From NCBI GenBank assembly GCA_965178125.1, contig OZ237760.1:620001-684000 (forward strand): 64,000 bases of DNA, read 5' to 3'. A program made the translations under genes and the position numbers. A model generated the notes under the pieces. That model ran no database searches and was not told the DNA's origin. It saw only the letters and a list, made by a program, of their open reading frames with translations. This document shows positions 12,713-59,923 of the stretch, piece after piece (the first letter of the stretch is position 1; the number at the start of each line of letters is the position of its first letter). Source of the DNA: Bilabrum cf. latius (lineage: Eukaryota).

Positions 12713-14677
12713 TCAGGTCCTCCCCGCGGCACCCATCGGCACCTTCGGAACTGCCGACTTTTCAGCACTCTCCTTGCCATTCTGCCCACTCGTCGCCACC
12801 GTACCCAGCGCCACCGGGTCCTCGTAATCCTCCTCCCTCGCGACCTTGACCTTCCTCCTTCCCCAGCTGGTGTTGAGCAGCCCCCTGGGGTTCCAGATGT
12901 GCATGCAGCTCTCCGGCTAGACCTGGTACTGATCGTCGACCGCCCTGCACACGATCTCCACGTCTGCCTCCTTGGGCGCGGCGGCACCCTTGCCGCCCTT
13001 ACGCGCCTGCTCCAGCTTTGCCTGAGGTACGGGTACCTCGGCGCTCCACAGGGTCCACGTCCAGTCCCTGCCTCTCTTCGCCTGGTGCGCCGCGTCGGCT
13101 GGCTTTTCCTCCAGCTCAGCCTCCGTCCAGGTGTCGCCTCCGTCGGCAGACACGTCCACGCGCACGATCTTGCGGCCTCCGCCACTGTAGGCGTACCCTC
13201 GCACAGGCACGCCATCCACCTCGACCTCCCCCAGCGGCAGCACCGCACCCTCCTTCGGCTCGCACACCTGCCCCTAGATCGGCAGGTCCTGGATCGACGC
13301 GGCGGTTTCGTAAGGAAGCTTGGAGGGGTCCGCAGAGGGCGAGAATGACTTATAGTCGTGCTGCTGCCAGTGGGAGGGGCTTTCCTCCTCTGCCAGCACG
13401 ATCCGGTTGAGCCATTTTACCTGCCTGGCACCCACTACCCCGGGTGCAATCAGCCGCAGGGGATATCCGTGGTCTGCGGGGAGCTCTTCGTCGTTCATGG
13501 AGTGCGCGATGATGACGTCAGCGGACGACTGGAGCGCCTTGTGGGCCGGGACAGAGGCCCCGTAGCACTTCCCCGTGATGTCGCAATCAGCGCCCTCCGC
13601 CTGCACGTGAAGCACCCGCCCTAGTTCCGGGTTAGCGCCCCCCTGCATGATGCCGTCCGGGTCCACCCCCGCGTCTTTGAGAAGGTCCCTGAGCCTGACC
13701 CCCGTCCACCTCGCCGTGCCGATAGCCCCGTCCCTCCAAGAGAGCCCCCGGACCTGCCTTGCCTCACTCATCTGCTGCCTGCGGTTACCGGCGCACTGGA
13801 GGGTCACGGGGACCGTGACCTGCGGCAGCCGGTGCTTCAGGTCGTCCACCGTGTATGCAACCCGCTTGCCTCCGAGGCCCAGCCCGCTCACTTCGAGCCT
13901 GAAGCGGCCCGACTCGACGTCTTTCGCTGGAATGTGGGGAACAGCCAGGTGGTTTCTCTTGTAGTGAAGATCGTTTGGCGTGTAGAAGTGCGATGTCAGC
14001 AGCTGGGGGTTGGTCTCGGCATTGAACGGCTGGCTCGAGTTGATGTCGAGGCCCATGCCAGCCAACGGCCGGTCGGGCTCGTGCGCGAACGGGTCGCTAT
14101 CCTCCATCTATTTCTTTGGTTGCTTTCTGGGCTTGGCGGCTAACGGGACGTCTTCTGGGTGCAAGTTGCCAATGCGAAATGTCTCGAGAAGCGAGCGAAC
14201 GCTCTGGCTGTCCTTGTGTATGGCAAACACTTTCCAGAACGGTTCCACGGACCCGCCTGCCGCCATCATAATCTTATCTTTTCCTCCTGGGTGGCTGTCT
14301 ACAAAGTTTGTCACGTCATACACGCCATGTCTGTATATGACCCAGATACCGCCGGTTTCCTTCGACACGTGAGACTTAACTTCTTCTAGCCGAAGAGTGG
14401 GCAAGCCCGCGGTAGGTTCCCCGAGTACGATCCCACCATTGCGTGTATCATGCGATTCAACAGCCTCTGCATCATGCTAGCAACGCAACTGATACGTTCC
14501 GGCGCAGGCTGCGGCTAAAGAAGCGGCTGTTGCTGCAGCCCAGCCAAACGACGAACCGTCGAATCTTCGCCGCCCTTCCGTAACTTCCAACGCACCTAAT
14601 CGGCTACTAGTGGCCAAGCACGCTGCATTTCGGCACGCAAAGGCTATTCGCCAACTTCTCCGGCCTGCCTGACGCAT
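12713..14677 (-). CDS. SUOX: Sulfite oxidase (targeting peptide + cytochrome b5 + Moco + dimerisation domains)
   Basis: Cyt b5 motif VYDVTNFVDSHPGG; PFNAET, RNH, TLQCAGNRR, HGYPLR..PGVVGARQVKWL, GYAYSGGGR, IWNPRGLL. TAG at 14477, 14108, 13274, 12917; ends at TGA 12713. Confidence 0.95.
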
Positions 14678-14825
14678 CGAAAGGCTTGTTGAGCTCGCTT
14701 TGTCCTGGTGCAGCTGACCGCTGATGTTAGTTCCGCAACCGTCGCGCGCGGCGCCCCAGCAGAAAAGTGCACGCTACGCTTTCATTGCACTTGCCTGATT
14801 CCGGCCATCGCGGCCGAGCAAAAAC

Positions 14826-20800: not shown

Positions 20801-22607
20801 AGCTCCCACTGAGGGCGGGCAAACCACCTGGGGCCTTCACGTCGGTACGCCCACGGAGAGAGGCAGCGGGGGCGGTGGCAGCGCCTGGGGCCTGGAGAAG
20901 CCCCCCACTCCAGCGGTAGGGCGGTCGTTGGACATCGGGCCAGACGCCGGACCTGGGCATGGCCTCGCAGATCAGGCGGACGCGGAGGAGGCCGAGCTGG
21001 AGGCCCTCCGGAAGGGGGGCCGGAACCGCGGGGGTGTCCAAACCGGCGGGAACAAGCAGCCTTCGGGTGCGATCAGGGTGTCTGGCGCCCAGCGGGACGC
21101 CGACGACATGGAGGACGTGCTGGGGCTCGCGGTGGGCGGGTTTGCGGGAGAGCTGCGGGACGAGCTGTGCGAGGGGCAAGGTCGGAATTCAGGCGATGAT
21201 GCGCCGCCTTCTTCGCCGCCGAGAGGGGGCGTGCAGGACGAGGAGACACTGGGCATGCTGGCAGGTCATGCTGTGTGGTCCGACGCCCGTGGCATGGCCG
21301 TTGTGGACGAGGAAGCAGCGCGGCGGCCGGACGACGGCGATCTGCCCGGAGGTGATGATGAGGGGCAGGGGGGCGACCTCGGCGTGGTGTTGCACTCGGC
21401 GTCGCACCGCAACAGCAAGTCCAAGAAGGGTCGCGATAGAGGTACCGAGGACGGCAAGGGCAGAGGCCGGGCGGCAGGCCCCGTGGCGCAGGTGGTCGGC
21501 CTCAGATAGGTACCCTCACGTGGCTCGCTTGCGCAGCAAGCACTGGGCATTGCTGCTGGCGGCGTGGGGAAAAGCGAAAGCCAGAATGGGGCCGGGAGCG
21601 GCAGCGGCCCGGCGGTCGCCCCAGCACCAGGCCTGCACGCGCCTCGCTTCTCGCGTGTCCGTTCAGTTTTGGGGCACGACACAATGATGTCAGGAAAGGC
21701 CAGCGAGGCGGGCGGCGGAGGGCCGTCTGCTGCAGCTGCATCGCGTACAGTGGATGGGCATTCGGAGGCCGGAAGGGGAAGGCTGCGGCACAGGCGCGCG
21801 CACCGGCACAAGGGTGGTGGAGGCGCAAGCAGCAGCGCGCTGGCGAAGGCAGCTGCTGCGGAGGAGGGCAGGGTCTCGAGCAAAGAGGCTGGTGCTGGGA
21901 CGGGCGGCATGGTGGAGTCGCAGTTCCGCAGTTTTTACGGCGGTCTCCGCGCTGCGATGGTAGAGTCGCCCGGCATCTACTACATGGGAGTCATCGACAT
22001 CCTGCAGGCGTTCACGCTCGAGAAGAGGATGGAGCGCTTCGTGAAGACATACTTCCTGTGCCAGGACCCGCTTGGGATCAGTGCGATCGAGCCGAGGCAG
22101 TACGCGAGCCGGTTCCGCCGCAGGGTTGTGTACTAGTGCCTGGACCACTACGTGCCCACGTCCGACCAGAAGGATCTGGACTTCGAGGACGAGGCCTTGG
22201 ACATGGAGGAAATGGAGGAAATGGGCTGCCTGCGCGGGTGGTTGCGGTGCGAGGGGGACGATCATGAGGACGAGGTGGAGCGGATTTGGTTGGAGAGGCT
22301 GGCAGATGAGCGGAGATAGGGTTAGCTACAGCGGGTGGCTGTGCTGCGGTCTGGACATGGGTCTGGGCCCGGCAGGACGGGGACGAGGAGGAGCTCTATG
22401 CACGGGTCTGGGTCCGCGTGGGGGGTGCAGCAACCGCCGGTGCTGGGGCGGTAGGCCACGGTATCTGCTTACGGACGGGCGCGGCTGCCATCGGCCGAAC
22501 ACGCCAAGGCTGGGCCTGTCGCAGTTCCTAGGTCGCACGCGCAGCACGGCAGAGCGACCGCAGCTCTGGATTCCGGCGACTTGAGCAAGCCCCTGCTGCG
22601 GGACTAA
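14826..22607 (+). CDS. GPCR-PIPK fusion (7TM receptor + PIP5K kinase), ~2,590 aa, about 19 in-frame TAG
   Basis: 7TM region ~15330-16160, then the LR(x)9GI motif LRKEILFYTTFGI. PIPK motifs FRDYEPHIFKRIR, FSEGASGAFLYFS, FIVKT, FDLKGSW, KDNDL, IMDYSLLLGIH and YYMGVIDILQ. One frame with no TAA/TGA from ATG 14826 to TAA 22605-22607. The start could alternatively be 15009 or 15081. Confidence 0.9.
18777..18872 (+). repeat. His-rich (CAC/CAT) low-complexity coding tract within GPCR-PIPK
   Basis: Encodes HHHHHHHRRGSHHRHHRHHRHGHHRSHGHGHH. Confidence 0.8.
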
Positions 22608-22745
22608 TTGTGCATACCCGAATCGCATGCTCCGTTTCAAAGTTAGTGTGGTTGTGCCCAAAATGTAGTAACGCGATGACACGAAAGGCATTCGGATCAC
22701 TGGCAAACCCGGGAACGTCATCGCTTCGCCTTGCCTACCAAAACT

Positions 22746-24728: not shown

Positions 24729-27700
24729 TCATCGGATCCGTCGCCCGTTCATGTCATACTCGACAGCAGCGCCACCACCCCTCCGCTTCGACGGCGACAT
24801 GAACCCGCTCTCACTCCCATCAGCGTTCGCAGCGCGACTGGGAGTAAGAGCACCCCCATCCCCGCCCTGGAAGTTGCCCTCTCCGGACCCACTGCGCGTG
24901 CGAACTCGAGGGCGGGCTGACGAGCTGCCTGCCTTGGGCGTTCGAGGAGGTACCGAAGGCGGCTCCGTTGCATGCACAGCCCGTCCGCTTGCAGTGCGCT
25001 GGATGCCGCGCGGGGCTCTCTTCTTTGATCCCAACCCGCTCGACTTGTTGTTGTCGTTCTCCTCATCCTCATCCGTCGCTGTCCCGGCGCGTGGCCTCTG
25101 CAGTGCCAGTGCTTTGGCGACGCGGCGGCGTTTTCGCGCGCTTGCAAGGGCTGCTCGCTGCTTACTCGAAGAGAGAGGGGCTCCAACAGTGCCCTGTGTG
25201 CTCTGCTGCTGCTAGCTGCCCTGTAGGCCGTGCTGCGCCTTGCTGTCTCGCTCGTGCGAATCGTTCGAGGACGACGATGCTTGAGAAGTCATTGTCACAC
25301 TGCCAGTAGCTCCCCCCACCACACCCGATGCGTTCTCACCTGCAGTATCTGCACTGTCGCCCCTCAATCCAGCCGAGTGGGCCCTGGCCAACAGACGCAC
25401 CAACGATCTAGGTGATGCGCCACTGAGCACGCCTGCCAGCTTATGGGCCAGCTGAGCGGATGGGCTGTCTGGGCTGGCGGATGAGGCACACGGCGCTGTC
25501 GTCGCAGTGCCCGGTGTGCTCGGCGCCTGAGGCTCAACAGGTGCACCTCTTCGTTCCTTTTCCTCCCCTGCCTCTGATTCTGCCTGCGCCCGAGAGCGCT
25601 TGCTGCCGGCCCGCAACTCCCTCAGCTGCATCTTCGTGCTCTCAACTACCGCCTCTATGCGCCTGCTAGAGAGAAGTACAGGCCTGGCGATTCCCATGGC
25701 AGCGTCACTTTCACTTGAGATGCCGACTCCACTAGGACTGCTGCTGCTGCTGCTTGCTGGCTAACCGTCGCTACCAGGAGACACAGCGGATGCAGCTGCA
25801 GGCAGCACCTTGAAGTCCATCGCCGATGCCATGGACTGCCTATCACCTGGTACCGTGTGGCCCGGCAGTGATCTGTGCTATGACGGGCGGGAGCTAGCCT
25901 CCTTGAGTTCCTCCTGTGCACTGGCGAGCTGTTCCCGGAGCTCCTTGGCCTCTACCTCCATCGCCTGCACCCTCTCCACGTGCTCTGCCTGCGCTTGCTG
26001 CAGCTGCTGCTTGAGACGGGCGTGTGCGCGCTGGGACTGGGGGGAGAACAGGCCTCCATTTCGTGACGAGTGCGTCCCGCCGGGCCGAGCTCCGCGCCTT
26101 GCGGCAGCAGCGGCTCCGCCGTCGCTCTGAATGGCCCTTGCACGCTGGCCAAACTGAAGGCTGCACAGGGTCTCGGCGGCATCGTCCGGCTCTGGGGACA
26201 CGGCAACGACTAGCGTGGTGCTGGCAGAGCCCCCCAAGCAGTCTTGCAGCAGCCGCGTTACGAGTGAATCGCGGTACGGGATGTGGGACATTGTATCCTG
26301 GGATTGGGAAGAGCTTGCTGCTGCCGCTGCAGACGAGGACGACGAGGACGTCGACACACCGCCATTACGCTTAGATTGCGCCGCCCGGCGCCGCGCATTC
26401 TACTTGTTCCGCTAATCTGCCTGCGCAAGCGCAGCCACGACATTGCCCAGTGCACTCAGGCTCTTGTTGATGGCCTGGGCCTCTTTCAGCCTAGCACCTG
26501 CAGCGACTGCCGCCGCGGACTTGCCTCCCATTCCACCGGTTGAAGAGGACGCCTGGGAGTCGAGGTTGGTGGACGACAGCCGCTCCGATCCTGCCAGATC
26601 GACGAGGACGAGCTTTCCGCGCTGGACGGTGGGGGGAGGGCAGGAGCCATCAGGAGCTTGCACAGAGGCCTTCGCGATTGCCACGCGCACCATCACGATC
26701 ATATGGGAGCGGCTAGAGACGGAGTTGATGCCGTTATCGGCGGTGGCGCGGCGCCTGCTGGCTTGCTCAAAGAAAGCCATCGCGTCCTGGTTGGAAGAGA
26801 CGGCGGTCCACTCGGCCCCCACTGGCACCACCTCGCCTTCGGACGTGACGCGGATGCTGACTCCGACCTGCCCTCCTTTCGCGCTAGACCCCTGCTCCTG
26901 GGTAGCACCCAGATCTCTGATGCGCTCGTTGTAGACCTCTAGCGCGGCAAGTGCGACGAGCCCAAAGCGCTCTTTGGATGCTGCATTCACGCCGCCGTCG
27001 TGGCCAGTACAAGGTGCGCCGGCGCTTGATGCAACGGCGGCGGCTGCTGCTGCGTCGATGGCGTCGTCCTCCATCTGAGCCATTCTATCGTCGAACACTC
27101 GCCTGGAAGCCATCACCCGCACGCCCCTGAGGTCAAGTTGCTGCAGGAGAAACTAGATCGACCTTGGCTGCACGCCACCCTGCCCAGCGCCCTCCCCGCC
27201 CACCATGCTGTGGGTCTTTCCGCTTCCAGTCTGTCCGTAGCATGCGACGCAGGACGTGCCACCGTCCAAGACACGCTCCACCGACGCATCCACCTCCTGC
27301 CACAGGTGCACCTGGCCGTGGGACGGGCGCAGCACCCTGTCAAAATCAAACACCTGCACGCTGCTTCCGTCTCCTTTGGCCGACCCTACGGGGGACCCCA
27401 GCCCAGCCAGGCCCGCCCTGCCCTGTACCCTCACAGCTAGCGACGACTCGCTCGGGAACTCGACTGCTTTCTGACCAGATCCATCCCTCCCAGACCGCCT
27501 GCCCCGCTTGCTGGGCCTCACCCTGGCGACCACCCTCACGCATCCTCTGAGCTGCTCGATGACCCTTCTGAGCCGCCTCGACTCGGCCTCTGCCTCGCCG
27601 ATCCTGACCTTGCACTGCCGCTGCAGGAGGTCTGCACGCGCCGCGATGGCCGCACCTGCCCGTGCCGCCGCGGTGCTGTTCCCCGCCTCCACGCCCAGCC

Positions 27701-30700
27701 TCCGTAGCCCTAGCAGCCGACCCCTGATCGCAACCACCTCCCTCCGTAGCGCAGCCAGGGTGTGCTGTGTGGCGGCGTCCATCAGCCGCTGCGAGCCCGC
27801 CTGGCCGACCACGCTCACCCTGCAGCCACCCACCATCGTCGATGCGCGAGTGGCACCCTCACGCACCCAAGTGGATTCTTTCTGTTCCGGCTCTGACGAA
27901 GACTGTCCGTTCCCATTTACGATGCAGTGCACCCAGCCAGGCACCACTGGTCTTGCTCCAGCGCTGCCGCTTGCCAACGGTCCTCGAAGCGGAGTGCCTG
28001 GCGCGCTTCCTCCTCTGCCTGCATCCGGCTGCCCCTGCAGCCCGATGGGGTGCCACTAGGGAACAAATGGGGACAGGAGGGCAACCGCTGCTAGGGGGGC
28101 GTGCAGGGCGAGACGCGCTGCCAGGTTCCACAGTAGCCTCGGGTGGTGGCTGGCCATTCTATCCAGCCGCAGCGCCACTTCCCCCTCCGTCTTCACCACG
28201 CGTTCCAGCAAGAGTCGCAGGGATCTGGAAGAGATTAGCTCGCACTCGTGCTGCCCGTCCTTAAATGGGGACGAGGAGGACGCTTTGGAGCTGGCGGCTA
28301 CTCCGGCAGGCACAGAGCCGGTGCTGCTCTTCTCGTTCCGGCCGCAGGTCGTCCACTCGACCTGGATCCTGGGAGAAAACCCAGTCCCACACGACGGACA
28401 CCTGTGCTGCAGCCCTGCAGCGCCACCACTGCCGATGGTCGTCTCGTCCCTTATCCCATCCGTGCTCCGAATCTGCTGCACCAGGCTGCCCTGGAGCCCG
28501 CAGGTTGGGTTGGGGCATCTTGACGAAGCAGCAGCAGCTATGCTCACGGATGTCCACTGCGGGAACGGGTGGGATTCCCCGCTGTCGCTCTGGTTTTCGA
28601 GTTCCTGCTGCAGGTTCACGTTGAGTTGCACCGTTCCTGTAGGTCCCACGGCCTCGAGCGGCAGTGCCTCCACGTAGGCCGTCTGCTGCTGCGTTTTGGT
28701 ACGTCTAGCGAGGTGCAACGCTACCTGGGACAGGTGGTTGCACGTCACCAAACCAGCCAGGTAGGCTGTCTCCGTCATGCTCCATGCCTAGTAGGAGGGC
28801 GCTTCTAGACTAGATGGTGGCTTCCCTGCCCTTTCCTGCACCTCTGACCACACGGCCTGCACGTCTGCTGCAGAGCACTTAAGCATGGCGCACTTGAGAG
28901 CGTCTCTGAAGACTTGGCCGGGACCGCGCTCATCTGACTGTCTCTCTCGCTCCAGTATGAGCAGAGTTGCTCGCAGAAGGCCGCGGTCGGCGGCCTGCCA
29001 CCCGTTCGGCGCTGCGAGCTGCTCGGCTGTCACGTACGCTGGGCTTGACAGTGACGTGGGCGAAGTATCCGACTCCCCATCGTCTGTCATGGCCTGTTGC
29101 ACAGGAGCTTCTGCAACAGATCCAGCTGCCGCTCCCACGGATGTTTCCTGCTGCTTGCGGGTTGGAGAGAACAACCGAAGCCGGCTAACCCCTGGTCTAG
29201 ACCGCAGCGGACTCGCTATGCCCTGCAGGACCTTTGCATCAGATACCAGGCGCCGCAGTGGCGTTCCGCTGCTGCTAGCATTGATCCCATTCTCTGCGCT
29301 TGAACCATAGGAGTACCCTTGTTCCCCTGCACCACTGTGTGACGATGATGAAGATGAGGAGGCAGACGGTCCGGACGAGGTAGCGTGGTGGACGGGCGAG
29401 TCGGTCCTGGCCAGGATCTCCGCTGCCGCCCTCCTCGCTCTGTGCATGTCGAGCCTCTGGCGACGCGCGGCATGCTTGCTCATGGCTGGACCAAGGCCGC
29501 CGCTAGCTCCATTGGAAGCATACCCGCCGGCTTTCGATGCATGCCCCACCGCTGCAGACCAGGTCGCCTTGCCTTCCGCAGCCCGAGCAGCTTTCAGCCC
29601 GCTCACACCACCTTCCACGTCCCCTCTTCCACTCAGCAAGCTGCCGCCAGCATCCGATCCTGCAGCGCTTTCCAGCACCAGATCGCCCAGCAAGGATGCA
29701 CGGGGGCCGTGCGCCACCAATCCAATGCCAGAAGACCTCCTGTGCTGCTCCGCCTTGCCCGCTGCACCAAAGAGCCTGGCAAACCAACCGAGAGGGGCTT
29801 TGCTGCCGCCACCAGCCGGACTGATGGAGCTAGAGCCCACGCCATCCAGCCCAATGCCGCCAAGCGACTTGCGCGACGCGGCGCGGGAACGCCGCCGCCT
29901 CGCAGCCGCTGCGTGTGACCTGGTGCCCGTGGATTCGCCCGACATTGCCCTGCCCCTGCTGCTGTCGCCTACAGACGCAGAATCGCAAGCGTCTTCGTCA
30001 GCGTCCACCCTGGACCGCAGCGCGGCGGCTTCTTCAGCACCAGTGTCGGGGTACATGTCTCTGCGTCCCTGGTACTGGTCCAGCACCGTCTCTATGGCGT
30101 CGCAGCGCAGCACGTCCTCCAGCGTGACCTGGTGCACTGCCAGTCGGGCCACGCTGCCCTCTTCCGTGGCGGCCCGCAGCCGTTCCGCGGTCTCGACCGT
30201 GGCTGCCTAAGGCGGCAGCACGACGGTGGTGGTGCAGTGGCCCAGCTCATGGGCGTCCGCTAGCAGCCGGGGCTTGGCACCCTTGGACTGGTCCAGCAGA
30301 GCGTCCACTAGAGCGGCGTGCGGGTCCTCGCCAGCGTTGGGCCGAGTCTGTCGATCCAGGAACCCGGCAAAGCACTGCGTCTGGAAGAGCTGTTCCAGGA
30401 ACGGACGCGCCTCAGGCGATGAAACGGAGAGCGCGCGCGCAGTGTCATACTCAACAGCTGCCATATTCGAGGCGGCGTGCTTCGGGCTTGCTGGACCTCC
30501 AGCAGCAGTGCCACTCGCCCCGACACCGGCCCTCTCATCGTCCTCCTGCCCCTGATCCCCGTCCTCTGTGATCAGAAACGCGTCGTAGTCGCCGATCAGT
30601 CGAAGCCACACGCGGGCTGTCGCATCGCATGCACTGGCCGCAACGGGAGGAGGCGCAACACTCACCCCGCCGCTCACCGTGCTCCTTGCCACGGGTGCCA

Positions 30701-32333
30701 CGAGCCCGCCGGCCGCGCGCCCACGCGACGATGCGCCGATCCCGTGCTTCGTTCTCGCCGCAAGCACGCGGGCCCGCCTGACCTCGTCCCTCCAGCACCA
30801 AGCTGGCGCGGCCGCGGCTGCGAAAGACGCAGTGCTTGCACTGCTGGTCCCATGGGACGGAGTGGATGCCGCGCTCCTAGACGTCTAATAATGCATGCTG
30901 CGTGGCGTGCTTGCGGCGCTGCTGCTTGCGCTCGCTGCTCCGCTCACAGCTCCTGTACCAGTGGCCGCTGCCATTTCAGCGATCTCGTCTGGGCCTGCCA
31001 CTAGAGTCGCGCCAATAGAGCCGACAGGCCCGTCGCCGTGGACGTACGCAGCCTCTACGCGGCACAAAGAAGCGACAGACACGCCAGCCGCCGCGTGCCC
31101 GCTGCTGAACGCGGCGTGCAGTTCCTTCATCGCCGCCCTTGGCAGCTCTGGTGCCTGGCACGCGGCGAGTTCCCTGCCATCCATGTCCCTTTCCTGCCTG
31201 GGCCGTATTAGGAAAAGGGTGCACGAATCGTCTGTGCCCGTGACGGCCGCCTGCTTTGGCCTAGCCGCCGGGCCGTGCCCAGGCTCTGTGAGCTCCTGCT
31301 GGCTCAAGACAACGGACTCGGCTGCAATCATGGGAGGCATAGGAGCAGCTGCCGTCATTGCGCCGCCTGCACTCGTCACGGCGCCGACCCCCATGTCCAC
31401 CACCAGCAGCCTGTCCGTGTTCGAGCCCTGACTGACGTGCTGCTCCAGCGCCTCCAGCCCCCTGTCCCTCTCCACTCCCAGGAAGAAAGGGCATGGGCTC
31501 TAAAGCAGGCACTCGAGTGGCACTGCCTCCGGCATGACTGGCACAAAGGCGTGCTGCCACTCGAGGGGCCAGAGGAGGGCCTGAGTCGCACGGGCGATGG
31601 GGGGGAGGGTCTCCTCGCAGGGACACAGGAGCACGATAGATATCTCTAGCGCCATGCAGCGGAGCAGCTGCGCGGCGCCCTCCGGGCCCAGCGTGCCGAG
31701 CAGAAGCGACACCTCATCGTCCAGGCTACCGCCAGGCGGCGAGCACAGAGGGGGCCGCTGCAGCTCGATCGCGTCCTCCAGCGAGTTGAAAATAACGTCT
31801 GATCTGTTTTTACCCTTGCCTTTGGCTTTGTTTCTGTGCGTCGACGGGTGGCTGGCGACCACTGGGAACGGTGAAACGTGCATCTTTCGCAAGCCGCGAG
31901 GAATCGACGGCAGATCGTGGCACAGCTGTGCCAAGCAGAAGGCAGTCTGCTGCACAGTGATTGCAGCAGAAGATTGTCCTGGTACTGACCTTGCAGCCTG
32001 CGCAATCGCACACGGCAAGGCGCTGAGCGCTCGCTCCATCGCGGGCAGCACCTCCGGGAATTTAGTCAGCATCACAACAGCGCAGCTTTCGAGCCTAAGC
32101 GCCGAGCAATGCAAGATGTTCCTAATTTCATCCGTCACTATAAAGCTCAAAACCTGTGGTTTCCCGGAACTGACGTTTCTGGACGTCAAAAACATGCCTA
32201 TCGATTCGGGGGCTGGCATTCTCGGCTCCGAGGGGGATTCTAAGTCTTTAAGAGGCCACCGCCACTCAAGAACGCACTATTTGCCTGCATCAATCCCTAA
32301 ACAACCGGCATATTGGATAGGAAGCCTTTGCAT
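24729..32333 (-). CDS. DENN-domain (DENND4/CRAG-like) protein fused to a kinesin-14-type motor, ~2,534 aa, intronless, 12 in-frame TAG
   Basis: Ten ORFs in one frame separated only by TAG. DENN core LLWPLEWQHAFVPVMP..L*SPCPFFLG; dDENN FLEQLFQTQCFAGF; DENND4-like C-terminal block SLRLLLERVVKTEG..HPRLLWNL; kinesin LRGCVRVVARVRP, YGQTGSGKTHSM, EVYNERIRDL, NSVSSRSH, LVDLAGSER, INKSLSALGNV, HIPYRDSLVTRLLQDCLGG. ATG 32333; TGA 24729. Confidence 0.8.
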
Positions 32334-32566
32334 ATTGCTGGAACTTCGATCTGAAATCTCCGAAACCAACGGTCTGTAAAATTGCAATTCCGAGTTGTTG
32401 ACCGGCTGCATGCACTGGTGGCCACTGACGGGCAGAGGTGACCCTGTGTGTACGATGCGTAGTCACGACTTCGATCCAAGCGTGATGGCAGGAAACGCGC
32501 CAATTGTATTAGAGAGTATGCATTGCAAGCACGGCAGCACTGCTGTAGGCCTAGAGCCAGCACTGG

Positions 32567-34252: not shown

Positions 34253-34942
34253 TGACCGTGCTGTAGACTGCCAAGTCGTCTAGGAAGGCGGCGGGGTTTC
34301 TATCCTGCAGAACTCCGAGTCGTCTCGCAACGACCTAGATCTAGCATTGGCCCATCTGAGATCTGTGTTCCCACGCTGTCCAATTAGAGCCGATTGGGGG
34401 ACAAGCAGCACTTCGATTCGCGTGCCGTGTTTTTGCAGCGTGGCTATGGGGGAAGCCGGGAGCGACAGCTGAATCACGCCCCCATTGCCAGAACCAAGCC
34501 ACTCTGTCAAGTCAGAGCATACTGCACTGGCAGCTAACAAACAAGCAGTCTAGCTTCAAGGCAAGTCACTCTTCAAGGGTTTCTGCTTGCCTTGTGCCCT
34601 AGCAAAGCGTCTGTCGGGGCCCCCGCGGGCGAGCTCCCTCCGTTGGTGCCCGCCACGAGCGGCTGCAGCGGGTTCACCTTGCTCCTCTCCGCCAACACAT
34701 CGATCCTCCGAAATTTTTCTGGGTTTGCGGCAACCATGGCCGCCCTGCGAGTAGCAGGAGAAGTCGATGGAGGGGCGGGGAGAAGCAAGGTGTCCGGGGC
34801 TGCGAAGCAAACTGCATTAGTCTATCTAGCTAGGACAGCTGGGCATGCACGAAAACAACAACAACAACAGCAGCAGCAGCAGTAGCAGCATTGGCAGATA
34901 AGCCAGCGGCAGCAGCGCAGATAGACGGGCAGAACCCTCGAG

Positions 34943-37900
34943 TCAGAATCTACGGTCCCTGTCAGACTGCCCATTCCCGGCCCGCTGGATCTGCTTGTCC
35001 CTGTCCCCACCGGTCGGGCAGCACCCGCAAGCACAACCGGCCCCATCGTGGCCGGAAGTCCCACCCCTCGCGCTGCACGTGCCGCTGCTTGGCCTGGATT
35101 TCCAGTCCGTGGGCTGTGCCGCGACGGGGAGGCTGGAGCTGTGCATGCGGGCCTGCTCCATCTGACGGCACGACTGGCCTAGCTGCTGCGAGCGCGCGGC
35201 GGAATATGACGGGGACAATCGACTTTCTAACCTTCTTTCATCTTCCGCGGTGTGGCACAGGCCACACCGGAAGTACGCTCCCAAGCACCCGCAGAGTGGG
35301 GGGTCGAACGGTTCCTGCGCCGACAGGAACTTGAGGGTGACGTACGGGTCCTCGGCACTTGGGCCGGTCTCCTCTGTGCCCGATCGCACCATCCACGCGC
35401 GGTAGAATTCAATGGGTGCTATGGCCACAACCACCATGAGCAGGTTTGTCAGCCAGAGTTCGGGGCTCCAAACAACGACGTTAAACGATCCCAAGTCGAT
35501 AAAGTTCGAGAGGGAGCTCGTGTTGTTGGCCATGATTCCCACGACGAGCGAGAGGATGTGCATCCCGAAGATGGCGATGATGTTGTACCAGGTCCAGATG
35601 CTGAGCTCGTACAGCATCACAAAGTCCTGCACCAAAACGTACCCGTTGAACATCACCAGCCCCAGCGACTCGTACACGCTGCCTTCTTCCCATCGCCGCG
35701 CCGACAGGAAGAGGATGAGCATCATCACGATGGCGTGGTAAGCCGCGCGCAGCAGCCATAGGCCGAACTCCCTGTAGTTCAGGAATGTGTTCTCGTTGCA
35801 GCGGCGGTACACGGTCGGGAAATTTACGGCGTGCACCTGGTTGATGTCCTTGTCCACGCAGAAGAATACGATGGGGACGAACAGGGCGGCGTTGTACGCA
35901 GCCACGCAGAGCGAGTTGAACAACGACACACCGCTGAATCCCGCCAGCCACTGGAACCCGATCTGGATGAAGCAAAACACGAAGGACTTGTAGAAGCTAT
36001 ACTGCGCGATCACCGCCGTCCTGTAGTACGAGTAGTGCCCGTGCACGAGGAGGAGCCTTTCCAGAGCGCGGAAGAACGCGACCTGATAATCGGCAGCGCG
36101 GGAAGCCTGCAATCCCTCCTTGCCTCGGATGCCCACTCCCACCTGCGCCTCCTGAATCATGCTGACGTCGTTGCCGCCGTCTCCTATGGCAAGGGCCACG
36201 TGGCCCGCGTCTCGGACCAGCCGCACTAGCTGGGCCTTCTGCGCCGGAGTGACCCTGCAGCAGATGACCGACTTGGCCTGCAGGCACAAAGCGGCAAACT
36301 CGTCCCGGTGAAACTCAAGGGCGATCCGGACGGTGTCACCCTTCACAATAATCGTGTAGGGCTCCTTGGCCGGGCCGCCAGAGGCGCCCGCGAGGGGGTT
36401 GCTGGAGCTCCCTGCACCGCTGCCCCCCGCGCTGGGCCCGGCGCTGACGGACGAGTCGGGCGCCCCCACGCCCCTAGTGCCGCACCACGCGGCACCAAAG
36501 ATGCGCAGCAGGCCGGTCCTCTCACCAGGCAGTTCCTCACCGAACTTGTACCCCTGCCCCTGCAGCTGCTGCTTGAGTTCTCTCAGCCGCGCGCCCACCT
36601 CTGTCTGGTCCTTGCCCGAGAGGACGAGGGGCGGGATGGTGTCGCTCTAGTTCTAGGCGCCTGCGCGCACCGGCAGCAGCCTGCACGTCTTTGCGATCGT
36701 GCCGGCGGTGCTCTGCTTGTCCCCCGTGCACATCCAGAACCTCACGTTGCCCTGCCTGAGCTTGGCGATCGTCTCGGGCACCTGGTCCTGCAGCTTGTCC
36801 TCCACGGCGGTGGCGCCCACCAGAACGAGGTCTCTCTCCATCCGCGCGAACAGCTCGTTGCGCTTGTCCTTCCTTCCCTCCAGGGCGGTGTTGGCCGCCT
36901 GGAACTCCTTCACGAACTCGGCGTGCTGGTCCTCTGATAGGTCCCTGTACCCGAAGACGAGCGTCCTGTAGCCCGCCTTGGCCCACCGGTTGACCCTGCT
37001 CTGTATCCTATCCCTGTGCGGCTCCTGCCCCTGCGCGGTCATGATCTCGCCCGGCTTGGTGTTGAGGAGCATGTCGTCAGCCCCCTTGACGTACAGGCGG
37101 CTCTGGCCCCTCCCGCCGGGGGTGCTGGGAGGCAGCCGCACCAGCACGGACATCCGCTTCCTGTCCGAGTCGAAGGGAAACACCGCAACCTGCTTGTACT
37201 CGATGCGCCCGCCCGGCTCGTTCACCGTCACGGTCTGCTCATCAGTGCCCCCGTCCCGGGCCAGCAGCGCCACGCCCAGCTGGGCCGAACCCTTGAGGAA
37301 GGCCTCCTCGTCGGGGCTCGACGCCTTGTACTTGACGGGTATCTCGTCCAGCCCCGCCAGCTTGCCGGTCGCCGCCGGCATGCTGAGTGCCGCTGAGGCG
37401 GCCGCGCCACCGCCGCTCCCTGCCGCCGGCTGGTTCTCCTTCGGCTCCGGCCTCACGTCGTTGTTGAGCGACATGTTCCTCAGCATCTCCAGCACGCTCG
37501 AGGCAGTTGCGCCGTCCTGCGCCTCCCTCCGTGTCCTCGCGGCCACGTGGTTCGAGAGGAGGGACGTGCGGCCCATGCCCACGGTCGATGGGGTGGGCGA
37601 GGCGGAGCCGCTCCCGCCGCCGCCCATCCGCTTGCTTTCGGAGTGGCCGGCGGCACCACCACCACTGCCGCTCTCGCTCTCCTCCTCCTCCGCCTGCGCC
37701 TCCTCCGAGCTGGGCATCACGGAGTCGTCCTCACCGTACGTGTCCTGCGCCCTGCCCAGCACGGTCACCATCTTGAGCACCATGATGTTCTGCGTGAGCG
37801 TGCCTGTCTTGTCGGTGAGCACGTACTCGATCTGGCCCAGGTCCTCGCTGAGGGCTGTGCTGTTTGGGATGGCCGCCGAGTCGGTGACAGGGTCGTAGAG

Positions 37901-39574
37901 CTGCTGGTCTCCCGCAATCATGTTAGAGTAGACCAGCTTGGCGAGGTCCAGCGTGACCTTGAGCGATATGGGGATCATGGTGCTGTTAAGGAGGAGGAAC
38001 CTGGCCGGGATGATGAGCGGCTGGTAGCCGGGCTCATCGTCCCTGCTCGGGTACAGCAAGTACCAAGTGTCCCGGCCGTTGTTCTCTTTCCATGTGTTCC
38101 CCAGTACGCCTAGGATGGCCACCAGCACCAGCTAGAACGCAAAGATGTAGATGACGATCTCGTTGATCGCGTCATCGGTACGCGTAAACTTGGGAGCCGG
38201 GGGCTTCTTGTTCTTGCCAAACTTGGTCGCGTTGCCCACGTACACGACGAGGGCCAGGGCCCAGTCCGTGTTGCGGACGTGGGTGGCCTGCAGCAACAGG
38301 TTGCTGGCGTCCAGTCCGACCCCTTTCTCTCTCTGCCCCACGTCGGCTTTCTTCTCGTAGAGCACGCCCTCGAACTCGCCCAGGTTGTCGTCGGGGGGCT
38401 GGCAGGTCACCCCCCCCGTGAAAGAAGCGGCAGCGGCGGGGGTCTTGATGGACTTGGTGATGGGCCTGCTGAAGCGCCCCTTCAGATTGGACTCGCCGTC
38501 CAGGTTTGTCGTCTGGATGAAGCAGTCGCCGTTGGGTGCGGAGCTGGCCAGCAGGACGCAATCGCAGGGCACCTCGTCGTCTCCGTGCAGCTTGAGGATG
38601 TCGCCCACGCGCACGTCCCAGCTGGCAGTGCTAACCTCCTCTCCCCCCCGCAGCACACGCACCTGCCTGTTGTTGGCCTCGCGGTCGGACCTCCATCTGC
38701 CCAGGTCGTCCGAGGCTTCCTTAACGGCCGTGATGCCGAAAATCACTGCGAGCGAGCGAGCACGAGCGTGAAACGGGCGGCCAAGCACGGGAATGCAGGT
38801 TATGGCGCTGATGAAATACGCAGGGGAGTTGACGCTTCTATTCGACGAGCGGCGAATTTGCCAGACACGATCCGACCCGCACAAAAGTCCAAAACTACCG
38901 GAGGGGCGATGTTCGACTCCTGCAGGCCCTTTCTCACCTAAAAGCGGAATCCATGTCGTCAGTGGATCGACGGGAGTAATTTCACTGTTCAATTGCAGGA
39001 ACCCGATCAATAAAAAGTACAGATTCATTGGACGACTGCGATGGAAAAACGACGTGGTGTGCATACGGGTGGAAACAGTGGGCCAGTCGGCTGCACTGAA
39101 TTCGAATACAGGAGGGCAAACACAAGGACCGGTTACGTTGATATCAGTTCCAATGCCTTGCTAGGTCAGCTGGGAGAGCACAGCAAGCAAGCGGCAATTG
39201 GGTGCACGCACGCACCTAGCTTCAGAACATGCATCGGGCTCGCCCTGCCAGCCAGGGCTATAGTTTACTTGCAGCTCCAATTCGGCACGCAAGAGAAGCC
39301 TGCCCGCTAACGCAATCAAGCTGTGGCGCACACCATGATGAACATCCAGACCGTGCACGAGCCAAACTAGGTTTGAAGCGTCCACGACATGCTTTCGCCA
39401 AACAATACTGCATCCTCACCTGAACTACTCAATAAGATTATACAGGATGAAGTTGTACCATGTATATTTCGTGTTTGTAATGGTGTTGTCGCCATAAGGG
39501 GCATTCGACTCAGGGTCATTGGCTAGGATCCGCCTTTCGCCCTCCTCCTCGCCACCCCACGGGCACATTCCCAT
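34943..39574 (-). CDS. P4-type ATPase (phospholipid flippase, ALA2-like); 3 exons
   Basis: NTITNTKYTWYNFILYNLIE*FS|RPMNLYFL; LDGESNLK; IPISLKV; DKTGTLTQN; SPDEEA; KGAD; TGDK; CCRVTPAQKA; IGDGGNDVSMIQ. Introns at 39036-39419 and 38746-38937. TAG at 39425, 38132, 36653, 36647. Ends at TGA 34943, though the 3' end may differ (see findings). Confidence 0.93.
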
Positions 39575-39841
39575 GGTGGGAATCCAAATCGATGCGGTGG
39601 CTCAAGCTGTATGCTTATGCACGTCAGTTATAATCAGAGTCCCTTCGAATGGTGGATTAGATAGCAACGAATTGTCGGTGCAAGCGCGCGGCGATTCTAC
39701 GTATGTTGCGTGTAGTTTTGCGAGTTGCAGCGGCACGCAAGTGGTTCGGAGTTTCCATCGATTCTGCCACATGAAAGGACGCATGTTAACCGTAGCGAAC
39801 AATTTCCAGCAATTAAGCGTACTAGATATTAGTTTTGTTAC

Positions 39842-42778
39842 ATGAAGCGAAGAAATTCATCTAGAAAGCCCCGATCGAACCGACGAAATCGTCGGAATCG
39901 AACGAGGGGGTAGGATGCTCCGCCGCCCACCCCACCGCACGAGTCCGGATCTGACTACATCGCGACACTAATAGCAAGATAGCAGGCTATTGAAGGTCAG
40001 TTTGGTGGCTCGCGGTCAGGCGATGTTTACCTTGTTAGCCGCGAAAACGGCGATCATCAGAGCCGGTCGCGGTTTCTTGGTGGAGTACGCGGCGAAGCCG
40101 CCAGCGCCAGTGCAGCCACCAGTGCAGCCGCTTCCGGTGCAATTGGCAGCAGCAGCCCTTAGATTCAGGCCAGCCCGCTGGCTAGCTTTTTTGAGCAGGA
40201 CTTCATTGGCGCCGGGCAAGCAGAGGTCGGCTCCGAGCACGGCGCAGCCCCGAGCCCTGCGGCTAGGCAGCTCAGCGGTGCGGATCCGGACGGTGGGGAC
40301 AATAGCCCCAGAGTACACGGCGACACAACCACTCGAAAAGTCTAGGCATTGGCTCTAGGTGTCCCTGCCACCATGACAGAGCAGGGAACCGCCAGAGATG
40401 CGGTGGCATCAGGCGCCTCGGCTGGTGCGCCACATCATGATGCCAACGCCCCGACCACCGCCAGCGGCGGCAGTGGTAGCGTTAGCAGCACACCCACGGG
40501 TGCGCGCTCGGACACCTGTACGAAGGGCACCAAAGACTCGGAATCGATCGGACTCAGCCGCTTCGCTAGCCTGAGGCGGGCCAGCGGCCAGTTTGCAAGG
40601 GAGGCGGAGCGGACGACCGCCGCATAGGCTGCCAGCAGCGCTGCTGGAGCCATGCGTGGAGGCCGGCCCGTGGTTGGAACCGGAACCGGAATCGGGACAG
40701 GGACAGGGACAGGGACAGGGACCGGAAGCGGGGCGGCCTCGCAGCCGAGCTCGTTCACGGCGAGGCAGGACCAGTCCAGCGGTGCATCGGATTCTACGGA
40801 AACGATCCAAGTGGGCGGCAGCGGTATCACCAACGGCAAGCCGGTCGGGGCTGCGGCTGCAGGGAACACGCCTCTAGACCCAGGCAGTGCGGCTCAGAGG
40901 CTCCGACTGCCAGGAGCCCCCCGATCTCGGGCAGGTGCAGGTGCAGCAGGGGGAGGCGACGCCGCGAGCAGCGAGCTCGATCCGAACGTGGGGTGCTGTA
41001 CGCCCACTTCTCGGTCCTCAAGCGTCCTGAGCGATGAGCCGCCGATAGGCAGGGGCGAAGACGGTGTGACGAGTGCTTCCGGGGACCGCGGGGGGGCCAC
41101 CTGGGGTGTCAACGATTTTGCGTCGGAGCAGGGACCCGACCCAGCCTTCCAGCAGCCTACGCAAGGAAGCGACTTGTCTGGTCCCGGGGGCGGAGGGGGA
41201 TTTGTGCCCCAGGACCGCCAGCTATCTCCCAGTAGCATGGTACGTGCTGACAGCGCGGAGGCGCAAGCAGCCGTGGCAAAGGCGCGCGCGAGGCACCTGC
41301 GGCAGCTGGATTCGGAATCGGAATCCAGGAGGCTCCGACGGTCTACCTCTGGAGGACCGGGGAGAAGCGGTTCGATGCCTGCCACTCGGCCGGCAGCTGC
41401 TGGCAGCAGCAGCAGCAACGGGAGCGGAGGCGTTGCCGGAGATGCAGGGGGCGACTTGGACGAGGGCGAGGACGAGGATGAAGACGAAGACGAGGAGGAG
41501 CAAGAGGAGGAGGAGCAGCTTTTGAACGAGCACGGGGTGGCGGCAGTTCTCAGAGATGCCCTGGGCCCCGTGGCGCCAGAGAGCATCCCGGATGAGCTGC
41601 GACGGCAGGCCGCGCTGGGTCCTGCTCTGAACGACAGTGGTGCTGGCGGTGCGTACAGCCGGGCCGGAGGGACACCAGCATCTTCATCTTCATCTTCATC
41701 CGCCACTGGCCCTGATGGTGTGCGTGGCGCCCCTGCGGAACCACCCATGTCCGAGGACACCCGCCGGCTCATGGAGGCGTTCAGGCGCAGGCAGAACGGC
41801 GAGAGTTTGGACCGAGGTGCTGGTGCTGGTGCTGGCGCTGGTGCTGGCCTGCACCAGGCCGGCTTGTCTCACCGGAAGGGCGGGAGGAGGCAGAGGCAAA
41901 GGCACAGGGAGAGGGAGAAGGACAGGCAGTAGGGCCGCAGGCACAAGGCGGGTCCGCGCCCCTTGAGCGCTGCGCAGTAGCACACCCAGGGAACAACGGA
42001 TGACTTTGATCCGATCCGCGTGAAGGACGGCCCGGCAGCTGCGCCTCCTCGGGCGGCTGGCCGCCAGCGCAGTCTCAGCTGCGAGTGGGGCGGAGAGCCG
42101 CAGCCCATAGCGTCCGAGCAGCCCGCCATCGCGAGACAGCACCGGGGACATGGGCATGGTCATGGACACAGCCATGGTCGACAGCATCGTGGTGACGGGT
42201 TTGTTCCGAACAACCGCGACGGAGGAGGGAATCTACCCCGGGCGCGGCTCGGCCACAAGCGCCGGCGATCCATGAGCGACGATTTCGCGGGGCGGTCTTC
42301 TGTTGCCCCTTCCTCTCTGGCAGATTTGGGACCAGATGCAGGAGACAGACGCGGGAGCATGCAAATGCAAGTCCAAGCGCACCATCCCCCACCGACTCGC
42401 GGATAGCACTATCTGCAGCACCAGCAGCACCAGCAGCGCCAGCACTCGCGCCCTTTGGGCCGCCAGGGAAGCGACAGGTCTGTGAGATCTGCCGGCAGCA
42501 ACGCCTCCCACGGGTCAAGGGGTGGCGTTGCGGACGCAGGCGCAAGTGGAGACGGCCGCGGTGAGTCTGGCAGAGGCACTGGCAGAGGTAGGGCCAGCAG
42601 CAGGGGCAGGGGCAGCAGAGGTCGTGGCCGAGGCCGAGACCGAAGCGGCCTCATGAGGGGCTCCCTGCCACGGCCCGGTCCGTCCCGGCATGGCTAGCAG
42701 ACTGGAGAGCGGCCTGCGAAGCGAGCTCGCACGGATGGAGCAAGCGCACGGCTACGGGTGGAGCTGGCACCCGGGTGA
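39842..42778 (+). CDS. Low-complexity Gly/Ser/Ala/Arg-rich hypothetical protein, ~978 aa
   Basis: One frame from ATG 39842 (basic N-terminus MKRRNSSRKPRSNRRNRR) to TGA 42776-42778 with 9 TAG and no TAA/TGA. Acidic run and G-T repeats; no domain recognised. Confidence 0.6.
40676..40727 (+). repeat. Hexamer tandem repeat (GGAACC/GGGACA) encoding (Gly-Thr)n
   Basis: ggaaccggaaccggaatcgggacagggacagggacagggacagggaccgga, within the 39842-42778 ORF. Confidence 0.75.
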
Positions 42779-55018: not shown

Positions 55019-55279
55019 GACTGATATATGATCTGAACTGCGACGAGCCATTCGCGGAAGGAACGAACCCCAATATCTGCTTTCCGAACGTTCTCCGATG
55101 TCGGATGCCCGCAATGGGCGTGCGCTGCTGTCTGGCGGTGGGTCCAGATACCCGCGAAACAAGCAATTTATAGGCTTAGGATATTGTTTGTTTTCCCGCT
55201 AGCTGCATATGTATTCCACTGCTGCTCGACCGGAACTTGCGACCACGAGGATCGGATCAAACAAACGAAGCGAGCGAGC

Positions 55280-58200: not shown

Positions 58201-59923
58201 CAAGGAACACGTCAAGCAGCACGTGGATCGTGCGGTGCGCAGTTCGATACGGAGGTCTGCGGCTGTCGCATAGAGCGAGACGGATGCAGAGCTGCGCTCC
58301 ACGCTGCTGGACCACAGCGAGTGGAAGAATCCCAAGGAAGGAACGTGGGAGCAGTTTCTTGCGAGCCTACCCGGATGCGGACCAACAGCCGCGCAGGAGG
58401 TGCTCACAGGGTGGGATGCAGACGGAGATGGCAACCTGGGCGGCTGCATCCTGGACTTGCAGCAGATCCCGATCGAGACGATTTTGATGCAAGCATCCGT
58501 GCCTCCGTGTGGGAATGTTCTGTTTGCCGGTGGGATCAAACGTGCGATCTCATTTTGCGCAACCGAAGAGCCAGGGGAGCTGTACGAGCGCGTAGTCACA
58601 GGCGTGCTCGCAGATGTTGCGCAGCTGGCCAACCAGCAAGCCGCAGGTAGAGCCAATCAGGCGGCATCTGTGCCGCATCGAGTGCGCCGCTAGACATCGT
58701 CACTGGATGCACCAGTCATTCTGAACGCAGACCCTCGGCCACCCGCGCAACCCCGAGACAATCGGAGTAAGCTGTCGCATTCAGGTGGCGAGCGCAGCTA
58801 CAGCACTGGTGAACCGCGCTTGATCGAGCCCCCAGCGAACGAGACAACCGGTAGGCGTAGTCCCGGCGGACATGCAACCGCAACACACGCTCCATCGCAG
58901 ATTCATCAGGGAGGGCGTCCAGCAGGCGCAAGTGATCGTCTGGAGCACCTGTTGCACCGGCCGCTAAGCGATCTCTCGCAGCATCCTATACACAGCATTA
59001 CCCAGCACCGTCCTGCATCGAGCAGCTCATTGGCGCTGCCACAAGATGCAGTGCATCATGGAGCGCAAGCCGCCCATAGCATGTGGAATCAGTCGCCTAT
59101 AGGGCAACCGTAGTACACAGCCCAGCGAAGCTAGCTGCAGACGATGCAATCCATGCGCCCGCGCTATGAATATGCCGTCTCTCCACGCTCGCACGCCCGA
59201 AGCCCCCAGGGAATCGGCACGCAAGCTACCCGTCGCAGACTTGGAGCCATGCTAAGCGGCGGGGTCATGCAGAGCCCCGGCCCGCAGGCATCAAGTAGAG
59301 TACCTGCAGCGATTGGTTACGGCTAGCCAGCAGCACCACAAGAAGCGCGGAACGACCATCTGCGCTCTCCAGGTGTCAGTAGCCTTTCAAGAGCACGCCA
59401 GCTCGCGTTGTCATCCAGACCGACGAGTGCTATCGGCGCACTGCGACCCTAGTTTGCGTCTGGCCACCACCCGCAGCTGTCATCCGGTCGATACTCAGGA
59501 CAGCAGCACGAACACTATGGGTATCGGCCGTCGGTTCCGCGCGATAGACCAGGCTCCCGCTCCCAGTCTATGGCAGGCTCGTCTGGATGGCATATGCCGA
59601 GCGATTCTTCTGAGGCGCCGCATGGACACGGACATCCCGATCACAGAAGGTTGTCCCACGCAGTGGCCTCGGCCGACAGCGGCCTGGGCAATCAAGGGAG
59701 CGTCAGTAGGAGTGCCAGAGCTTCACAAGCAAGGGGTGGGGCGCCGGGCACAGGCTCATGCTCGGAATCGGTGGCGCACAGCTCGGAGGAGCACGTTCAC
59801 CTGTCAGGCGTGCGCGTCTAGTCCGGTACGGCAACCCCGGAAGAGGTAATGAAGCTGCGAAACAGGCGGCTGGGGGTAAGCGCGGGCAGCAAGGGGGGCC
59901 AGAGTCGCCTGCAGTGGTCGTGA
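55280..59923 (+). CDS. SHOC1/Zip2-like (XPF/ERCC4-like + HhH) putative meiotic crossover protein, ~1,547 aa
   Basis: Nine ORFs in one frame separated only by TAG (13 in total). ERCC4-like segment (LIEIDREAAVLCV...YPWLHVVLL), HhH-like EQFLASLPGCGPTAAQEVL and C-terminal RRLGV...GGQSRLQWS then TGA resemble SHOC1 features recalled from memory. The size is similar to SHOC1. Confidence 0.55.

Follow-up and report, generated by a model that had tools for sequence, protein, structure and literature searches.

Results

The P4-ATPase gene and its transcripts

The DNA analysed here is a 64,000-nucleotide (nt) stretch of contig OZ237760.1 (positions 620,001 to 684,000; hereafter the window), and all coordinates of its genes are positions within it. 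Its minus strand carries a P4-ATPase gene, which we modelled as four exons and 1312 codons closed by a TGA stop, with four in-frame TAG triplets at codons 50, 289, 782 and 784. Two of these had been picked out in an original prediction made from the letters of the window, which placed one TAG at the E-Q-F motif (39425) and one at the FQ position of transmembrane segment 3 (TM3; 38132) and read both as glutamine (Gln). Both triplets are indeed present in frame on the minus strand, the first at 39427-39425 and the second at 38134-38132. Were the first a stop, translation would end after 49 residues, close to the truncation after about 50 residues that had been foreseen.

The identity of the product is clear from domain and structure searches. 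In Pfam, exon 1 matches PF16209 (PhoLip_ATPase_N, 2.7e-10), and the long third exon matches PF16212 (PhoLip_ATPase_C, 5.9e-48), PF13246 (Cation_ATPase), PF00702 (Hydrolase) and PF00122 (E1-E2_ATPase). The best PDB match of the long exon is human ATP8B1 (8ox4_A, E 1.5e-153), one of 20 sequences at E <= 1e-20, with ATP8A1, Drs2p, ATP11C, Dnf1/2 and Neo1 among the further matches; the 51-residue peptide of exon 1 had no PDB match. The spliced product holds DKTGT at residue 396, TGDK at 758 and GDGGND at 939, all aligned to ATP8B1. It shares the full domain set and motifs with P4-ATPases such as human ATP8B1, ATP8A1 and ATP11C, yeast Drs2p and the plant 'phospholipid-transporting ATPase 2-like' protein, differing from the known enzymes in its long, low-complexity Ala/Gly/Ser inserts, and it is at most 47% identical to any canonically coded homologue among the matches listed (P0002). 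As judged from its sequence, the gene is a bona fide P4-ATPase (a predicted phospholipid flippase), intact but for the TAGs.

The exon structure was established from sequencing runs. A search found the whole stretch in four runs from one sample (X1-X4), and 78-85% of its words in three runs from two other studies (X5, X6 and X7), and contigs from these runs were compared with window positions 34900-39700. The DNA contig from X1 is collinear with the window, matches it in every letter and may be the sequence from which the window derives. X5, X6 and X7 each gave one contig of 3.8-4.1 kb covering 39645/39662-39420, 39035-38938 and 38745-35231, with no differing letters and no gaps; these contigs skip 384 and 192 nt at minus-strand GT..AG borders, leaving introns 1 and 2 uncovered. 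The RNA status of the three runs is the guess of a tool ('RNA?'), and no run is on record as RNA. We regard their contigs as derived from transcripts on two grounds: they are spliced, and nothing in these runs covers introns 1 and 2.

Beyond 35231 the same contigs run into sequence at 34743 and below, and this continuation defines intron 3 and the last exon. The loose ends, 217-222 nt long and starting at 34743, extend about 50 nt past the TGA at 34575-34573, so that the spliced frame closes at a TGA within the transcript, as expected if UGA is a terminator. At the other end, no ATG occurs in the 88 nt of transcript that lie 5' of the ATG at 39574-39572. This ATG is therefore the first in the transcript, which makes the first TAG codon 50. 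The features of the gene are as follows, in the order in which they are transcribed.

39575..39662, minus strand: 5' untranslated region; transcript contigs reach 39645 (X5) and 39662 (X6, X7)
39420..39574, minus strand: exon 1, with the ATG at 39574-39572, TAG codon 50 and the PF16209 match; its end is set by the transcript joint 39035/39420 in 3/3 RNA-like runs
39425..39427, minus strand: TAG at the E-Q-F motif, codon 50; context TAT AAT CTT ATT GAG TAG TTC AG/GTGAGG, peptide NTKYTWYNFILYNLIE*F (asterisk, TAG)
39036..39419, minus strand: intron 1, 384 nt, GTGAGG...TCGCAG; skipped in the X5, X6 and X7 contigs and kept in the X1 DNA contig
38938..39035, minus strand: exon 2, from the transcript contigs; its product, SRPMNLYFLLIGFLQLN..., agrees with homologue P0003
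38746..38937, minus strand: intron 2, 192 nt, GTGAGA...TCGCAG; joint 38745/38938 in 3/3 RNA-like runs
35232..38745, minus strand: exon 3, the bulk of the P4-ATPase, holding TAG codons 289, 782 and 784; no other letters in the transcript contigs
38132..38134, minus strand: TAG in TM3, codon 289; context ATC TAC ATC TTT GCG TTC TAG CTG GTG, peptide IYIFAF*LVLVAILG
36655-36653 and 36649-36647, minus strand: two more TAGs, codons 782 and 784, reading AGA-TAG-N-TAG-SDT in a non-conserved insert
34745..35231, minus strand: intron 3, 487 nt, GTTAGA...TCGCAG; the loose ends of the X5, X6 and X7 contigs at 35231 map to 34717-34743
34573..34744, minus strand: coding part of exon 4, with the TGA stop at 34575-34573, the first TAA or TGA of the spliced frame (codon 1313)

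The 3' end of exon 3 has a one-base ambiguity (G), which was settled in favour of GT..AG. All three introns end in TCGCAG, behind the donors GTGAGG, GTGAGA and GTTAGA. X5 also has an unspliced contig of 404 nt at 34900-35260, across the donor of intron 3, at a depth of 36 vs 165; it could represent intron retention, pre-mRNA or another transcript.

The spliced contigs bear directly on the fate of the TAG codons. The original prediction had named two outcomes that would speak against it, namely removal of these codons by splicing and transcripts carrying CAG in their place. Introns 39036-39419 and 38746-38937 exclude the TAG codons, and all four TAGs are retained without a differing letter in the spliced contigs of all three RNA-like runs. 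At the level of contigs, the flippase TAGs are neither spliced out nor edited.

The residue at the flippase TAG positions

To place the TAGs among homologous proteins, the spliced product, with X at each TAG, was aligned with the best 120 of 2061 homologues, the set to which the following counts refer. At codon 50, 81 of the sequences have a residue, which is Q in 75 (otherwise E 2, H 2, C 2); the remaining 39 are N-terminally incomplete and gapped here. At codon 289, 119 have a residue, which is Q in 114 (otherwise I 2, L 2, M 1), and there is a single gap. Most sequences are gapped at codons 782 and 784 (105/120 and 104/120, respectively). Columns with a Q majority are scarce (16 of the 1031 alignable P4-ATPase columns, or 1.55%), so the presence of both alignable TAGs in such columns is beyond chance.

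Close relatives point the same way. An orthologue on a metagenomic contig (L002, 86% identical) has CAG at both the codon-50 and the codon-289 site, and P0003 (77% identical) has Q at both, within NLIEQFSRPMN and IYIFIFQLVLV. The serine that follows NTKYTWYNFILYNLIE*F is encoded across the splice junction (AG/T), and since P0003 reads straight through NLIEQFSRPMN, the junction of exons 1 and 2 is confirmed. The TM3 site is also Q in P0002, P0004 and P0006. For the two codons in the insert, P0001 (97% identical, in the standard code) reads AGAQNQSDT, giving Q at both 782 and 784; this entry starts two residues past the TAG of TM3, which is what a standard-code gene caller would make of the gene. 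For every one of the four flippase TAG sites, then, some relative with an identity of at least 77% has an ordinary Gln.

These data uphold the assignment of TAG to Gln in the original prediction, through the Q columns, the CAG of L002 and the Q of P0003. For TM3 this comes with a proviso. Human ATP8B1 has L at the same position, so that the Q is conserved within the subfamily of the window flippase and not across all P4-ATPases.

TAG at Gln positions in other genes of the window

The pattern extends well beyond the flippase. Open reading frames (ORFs) bounded by TGA are strikingly long and rich in TAG, and every long ORF in the window has TAG. Of 26 ORFs scanned against Pfam, 15 could be given a name; these include a 7TM-PIP5K fusion, a DENN-kinesin, a DNA ligase, a cytochrome b5 sulfite oxidase, a Nudix hydrolase, a Wntless-like protein, a cytochrome c heme lyase, a serine carboxypeptidase and a GH79 enzyme. 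The sulfite oxidase gene is the most informative of these for the residue at TAG:

12716-14404, minus strand: sulfite oxidase gene of animal type, with cytochrome b5, molybdenum cofactor (Moco) and dimerisation domains; PDB match 1sox_A, 1.9e-128
12917..12919, minus strand: TAG at the V-Q-P position (YNVQPDS); Q in chicken 1sox_A, and Q in the column in 120/120 homologues
13274..13276, minus strand: TAG at the L-P-(I/V)-Q position (ELPVQSAV); Q in 1sox_A, and Q in the column in 91/120 homologues (T 18, N 5, V 4, L 1, I 1)

Only 8 of the 471 columns of the sulfite oxidase alignment have a Q majority, and both alignable TAGs fall in them. The protein collection holds no sulfite oxidase homologue above about 49% identity, probably because the TAGs split the gene in standard-code predictions. 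The kinesin supplies a further case, its TAG aligning with a Q of KIFC3. UAG is kept in mature mRNA at sites where Gln is conserved, in many genes, and it interchanges with CAG between relatives. In-frame UAG at positions where homologues have Gln, as seen here, is what a code in which UAG specifies Gln would be expected to show.

TAG was also translated as each of the 20 residues in turn and the products were scored against four Pfam families. In PF16209 (P4-ATPase N-terminus), the check that had been proposed in the original prediction, Q scored best at 38.8 bits, followed by H at 36.0; in PF03404 (Mo-co dimer) Q was again best at 119.5 bits, followed by N at 116.8. Summed over the four families, the scores in bits are Q 316.0, N 310.8, K 310.6, E 308.2, S 305.2, Y 296.1, L 293.9 and W 290.8, and favour Q by 5.2.

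Several of the other ORFs deserve mention in their own right. The ORF at 14799-22676 (plus strand) is bounded by TGA, runs to 2626 codons with 20 in-frame TAGs and has an N-terminal multi-pass membrane region, which gives a weak 7tm_1 match of 7.7e-4 (below the Pfam cutoff), and a C-terminal PIP5K domain (PF01504, 2.4e-69); it is predicted to encode a GPCR-PIPK-type fusion. At 24732-32462 (minus strand), an ORF of 2577 codons with 12 TAGs and no TAA has DENN/dDENN near the N-terminus and a kinesin motor with Microtub_bd at the C-terminus, and its product is a predicted DENN-kinesin fusion of an unusual kind. Three ORFs of more than 1000 codons (39377-42775 and 55037-59920, plus strand; 5-3292, minus strand) have no Pfam match and 13 TAGs each; they are rich in low-complexity Ala/Gly/Ser sequence, including a GTGTGTG stretch encoded by (GT)n. 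The DNA ligase ORF ends at 12582-12590 (plus strand) in TAA-GTN-TGA, a tandem pair of presumed stops.

Usage of TAA

Codons were counted in 17 non-overlapping ORFs of at least 500 codons, amounting to 19,052 codons. As these ORFs were bounded by TGA alone, the count carries no selection against TAA. The ORFs contain 637 CAG, 174 CAA, 139 TAG and 9 TAA, so that TAG makes up 139 of 950 Gln-type codons. If both TAG and TAA stood for Gln and followed the same bias as CAA and CAG, the expected number of TAA would be 38 (Poisson P 1.9e-8).

The positions of the nine TAA are as telling as their number. Five precede a start codon or fall in the 5' portion of an ORF, before its domains (relative positions 0.04, 0.042, 0.066, 0.455 and 0.573) and one (0.646) lies in an antisense shadow ORF. 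The remaining three are near ORF ends, at 0.924 in the Wntless-like gene, 0.991 in the PIP5K gene and 0.999 in the ligase gene, and fit true stops. No TAA, and thus no sign of the sense usage that would mark a UAR-to-Gln code (UAR, UAG and UAA), was found within any Pfam-matched or transcript-supported coding stretch. This indicates that TAA is not a sense codon in the window genes, a point on which the original prediction was silent, and its absence from coding stretches together with its placement suggests that UAA very probably terminates.

Discussion

Assignment of UAG and alternative explanations

Taken together, our results make it very likely that the TAGs at the E-Q-F motif and in TM3 are ordinary Gln codons in an intact, transcribed and spliced P4-ATPase gene, and that the nuclear code of this organism reads UAG as Gln and uses UGA and, very probably, UAA as stops. 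A mechanism can be proposed by analogy with what has been established in other stop-to-Gln codes (PMC2984419). A tRNA-Gln with a CUA anticodon, derived from the normal tRNA-Gln, would decode UAG, and eRF1 would no longer recognise UAG while keeping its recognition of UAA and UGA.

A number of observations weigh against this assignment or temper it. No tRNA gene was found in the 64 kb window; the decoding machinery and the residue at the protein level are inferred. The L of human ATP8B1 at the TM3 position runs counter to Q there, and L002 itself carries an in-frame TAG at a site occupied by E in the window and by A in P0003. Among the 20-residue scans, PF01265 (heme lyase) prefers S (113.9 bits) and D (112.9), with Q fifth at 112.5, and PF03662 (GH79, five TAGs) prefers N (46.5) and K (46.2), with Q third at 45.2. 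Against single PDB homologues, three other TAGs align with P (PIP5K) or with V and W (Nudix), at variable positions; these alignments say nothing either way. X5 was flagged 'probably DNA', the RNA status of X5-X7 is guessed, and a transcript 3' end, with TGA as the stop, is defined for the flippase only, termination at UAA being deduced from position.

The principal competing account is that UAG and UAA both encode Gln, TAA being merely rare in a GC-rich genome and TGA the sole stop. UAR-to-Gln is the commoner variant and ulvophytes use TAG more than TAA, as reported in passages of PMC2984419 and PMC11687900, and the window shows a preference for third-position G (637 CAG vs 174 CAA); in the DNA ligase ORF, where TGA follows TAA two codons later, either could be the stop. 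We nevertheless consider this account improbable, given that TAA falls far below the number expected with that same bias (9 vs 38), is absent from every confirmed coding stretch and, in the three cases that belong to real genes, sits at 0.924, 0.991 and 0.999 of ORFs that were delimited by TGA alone. The UAR-coded Amoeboaphelidium genomes, moreover, are 40% GC (as stated in PMC10608142), against about 60% in the window. Even less probable is an ambiguous UAG, read as Gln within genes and as a terminator near mRNA 3' ends in a context-dependent manner, or passed by inefficient readthrough. Context-dependent codes have been described for some ciliates and Blastocrithidia, and the PIP5K ORF has TAG at codons 2507, 2509 and 2552, after the last conserved domain and before the TAA at codon 2603. 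No gene of the window requires TAG as a stop, however, and the sole gene whose 3' end is defined by transcripts stops at TGA; for readthrough, 139 TAGs in 950 Gln-type codons, and four TAGs within one essential-type gene, are too many to allow a full-length product by leakage.

We give hardly any credence to the remaining accounts, in which the flippase is a pseudogene, the TAGs arose as errors of sequencing or assembly, or TAG stands for a residue other than Gln (Leu, Ser, Glu, Tyr, Trp, Lys or pyrrolysine). They start from the fact that TAG is a stop in the standard code, and nuclear codes with UAG as Leu or Ser are known (PMC11687900, in part). A pseudogene is at odds with a frame otherwise open over 1312 codons, with all catalytic motifs, that is expressed and spliced; an error is at odds with identical sequence in independent runs from three studies; and neither accounts for TAG in every long ORF of the window. 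As for the residue, the four-family Pfam sums place L, S, E, Y, W and K all below Q, and one TAG of the sulfite oxidase gene sits in an invariant Q column.

Comparison with known genetic codes

The code proposed here, with UAG as Gln and UAA and UGA as stops, has precedents. Reports of it concern Iotanema spirale (a fornicate), Protocruzia tuzeti (a ciliate) and two lineages of phyllopharyngean ciliates (in portions of PMC11687900 and PMC5304391), and appears as 'genetic code 15' in PMC9523058. The better-known UAR-to-Gln code (NCBI table 6 type) is listed for ulvophytes, Amoeboaphelidium protococcarum, Hexamita, Streblomastix and many ciliates (PMC11687900, PMC2984419 and PMC8271138, each in part); hexamitids and oxymonads share it. 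UAG has also been given other meanings, as Ser in the green alga Scotinosphaera, where UAA is still a stop (described in PMC8271138), and as Leu in the uncultured rhizarian exLh (PMC5304391) and in metagenome-assembled genomes of ciliates (as PMC11687900 notes).

The window resembles the code 15 lineages in having TAG at conserved Gln sites, TAA absent from coding frames and present at ORF ends, and TGA as a stop. It differs from them in its base composition (about 60% GC), its introns of 192-487 nt and its very long exons. Heme lyase and a mitochondrial-type sulfite oxidase with cytochrome b5 are both encoded in the window and would imply aerobic mitochondria, unlike Iotanema, which is anaerobic. 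An origin independent of the known code 15 lineages is likely, but not proven. With the UAR-to-Gln codes the window shares the capture of a stop for Gln and the exchange of TAG and CAG between relatives, and differs in that TAA is not a sense codon; from Amoeboaphelidium it differs also in GC content, as noted above. In common with Scotinosphaera and exLh it has UAG uncoupled from UAA, the residue being Gln rather than Ser or Leu (305.2 and 293.9 bits, respectively, vs 316.0 for Q).

Our literature search, which left most subscription journals and supplements outside its coverage, found no GC-rich, non-ciliate organism with UAG-to-Gln. The type of code is already known, and it is the GC-rich, intron-bearing and apparently aerobic host that differs markedly from the known cases.

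Lineage and extent of the proposed reassignment

The genome represented in the window is about 60% GC and has few introns (192-487 nt, GT..AG), very long exons and long low-complexity inserts. The affinities of its genes are diffuse, and none of the named homologues is close. The best named homologues of the P4-ATPase are scattered over Anaeramoeba, Plasmodiophora, dictyostelids, Capsaspora, Basidiobolus and plants, each by a partial alignment; they span Metamonada, Rhizaria, Amoebozoa, Opisthokonta and plants, and among the best 120 of 2061 homologues no ciliate or fornicate is named. An ulvophyte origin is conceivable, but among the matches listed those from green plants are not the closest. 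The sulfite oxidase is 43-49% identical to those of oomycetes and animals alike. In a FastTree tree of the sulfite oxidase set, the window sequence lies on a long branch, adjoining an unnamed sequence and close to a chytrid (support 0.855); this single-gene tree gives a weak hint of a placement on the chytrid side. Two named organisms were set aside as possible sources: Amoeboaphelidium, of interest for its UAR-to-Gln code and its parasitism of algae, is excluded by a GC content of 40% against about 60% in the window, and Nuclearia thermophila has 44% GC, with no mention of the genetic code in its preprint.

Related sequences from metagenomes give an impression of how far the reassignment reaches. 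L002 has an in-frame TAG of its own at 1586-1588, eight codons past its ATG (WSS-TAG-EEG), and its source, too, would read TAG as sense. A more distant metagenome contig, L001 (58.6% GC), carries a flippase of 1351 codons that is 44% identical to that of the window. Across this flippase and a neighbouring leucine-rich-repeat-like ORF of 1046 codons (L001 3-3140 and 4482-8534), there is no TAG in 2,397 codons, and the source of L001 appears to use TAG as a stop. On the sequences compared, the reassignment would seem to be confined to a clade around the window's organism.

We tentatively suggest, as a possibility that we hold open rather than favour, that the window represents a non-ciliate, aerobic lineage with a GC-rich, intron-bearing genome in which no departure from the standard code had been recognised before. 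In it, UAG would have been captured for Gln independently with UAA still a stop, and at least three related taxa (the sources of P0001, 97%; L002, 86%; and P0003, 77%) would share the trait while that of L001 would not.

Implications

Changes to the nuclear code are rare, and codes that give UAG and UAA different meanings are rarer still, with a handful of lineages named in PMC11687900, as far as its relevant passages go. The practical consequences are immediate. Gene callers that apply the standard code cut genes at each TAG, as is seen in the start of P0001 and in the lack of a near-identical entry for the sulfite oxidase. Unless UAG is read as Gln, with UAA and UGA as stops, annotation, orthology assignments and contamination screens will go wrong, both for the organism and for its relatives.

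If the suggestion of an independent capture holds, UAG would have been uncoupled from UAA independently once more, this time in a genome of high GC content, so that AT pressure cannot explain a loss of UAG. A case of this kind in a GC-rich non-ciliate, backed by data from genome and transcripts and by relatives at stepwise increasing distances, would be a new system in which to unravel how eRF1 discriminates UAG from UAA, and the same system would allow study of how a reassignment becomes fixed.

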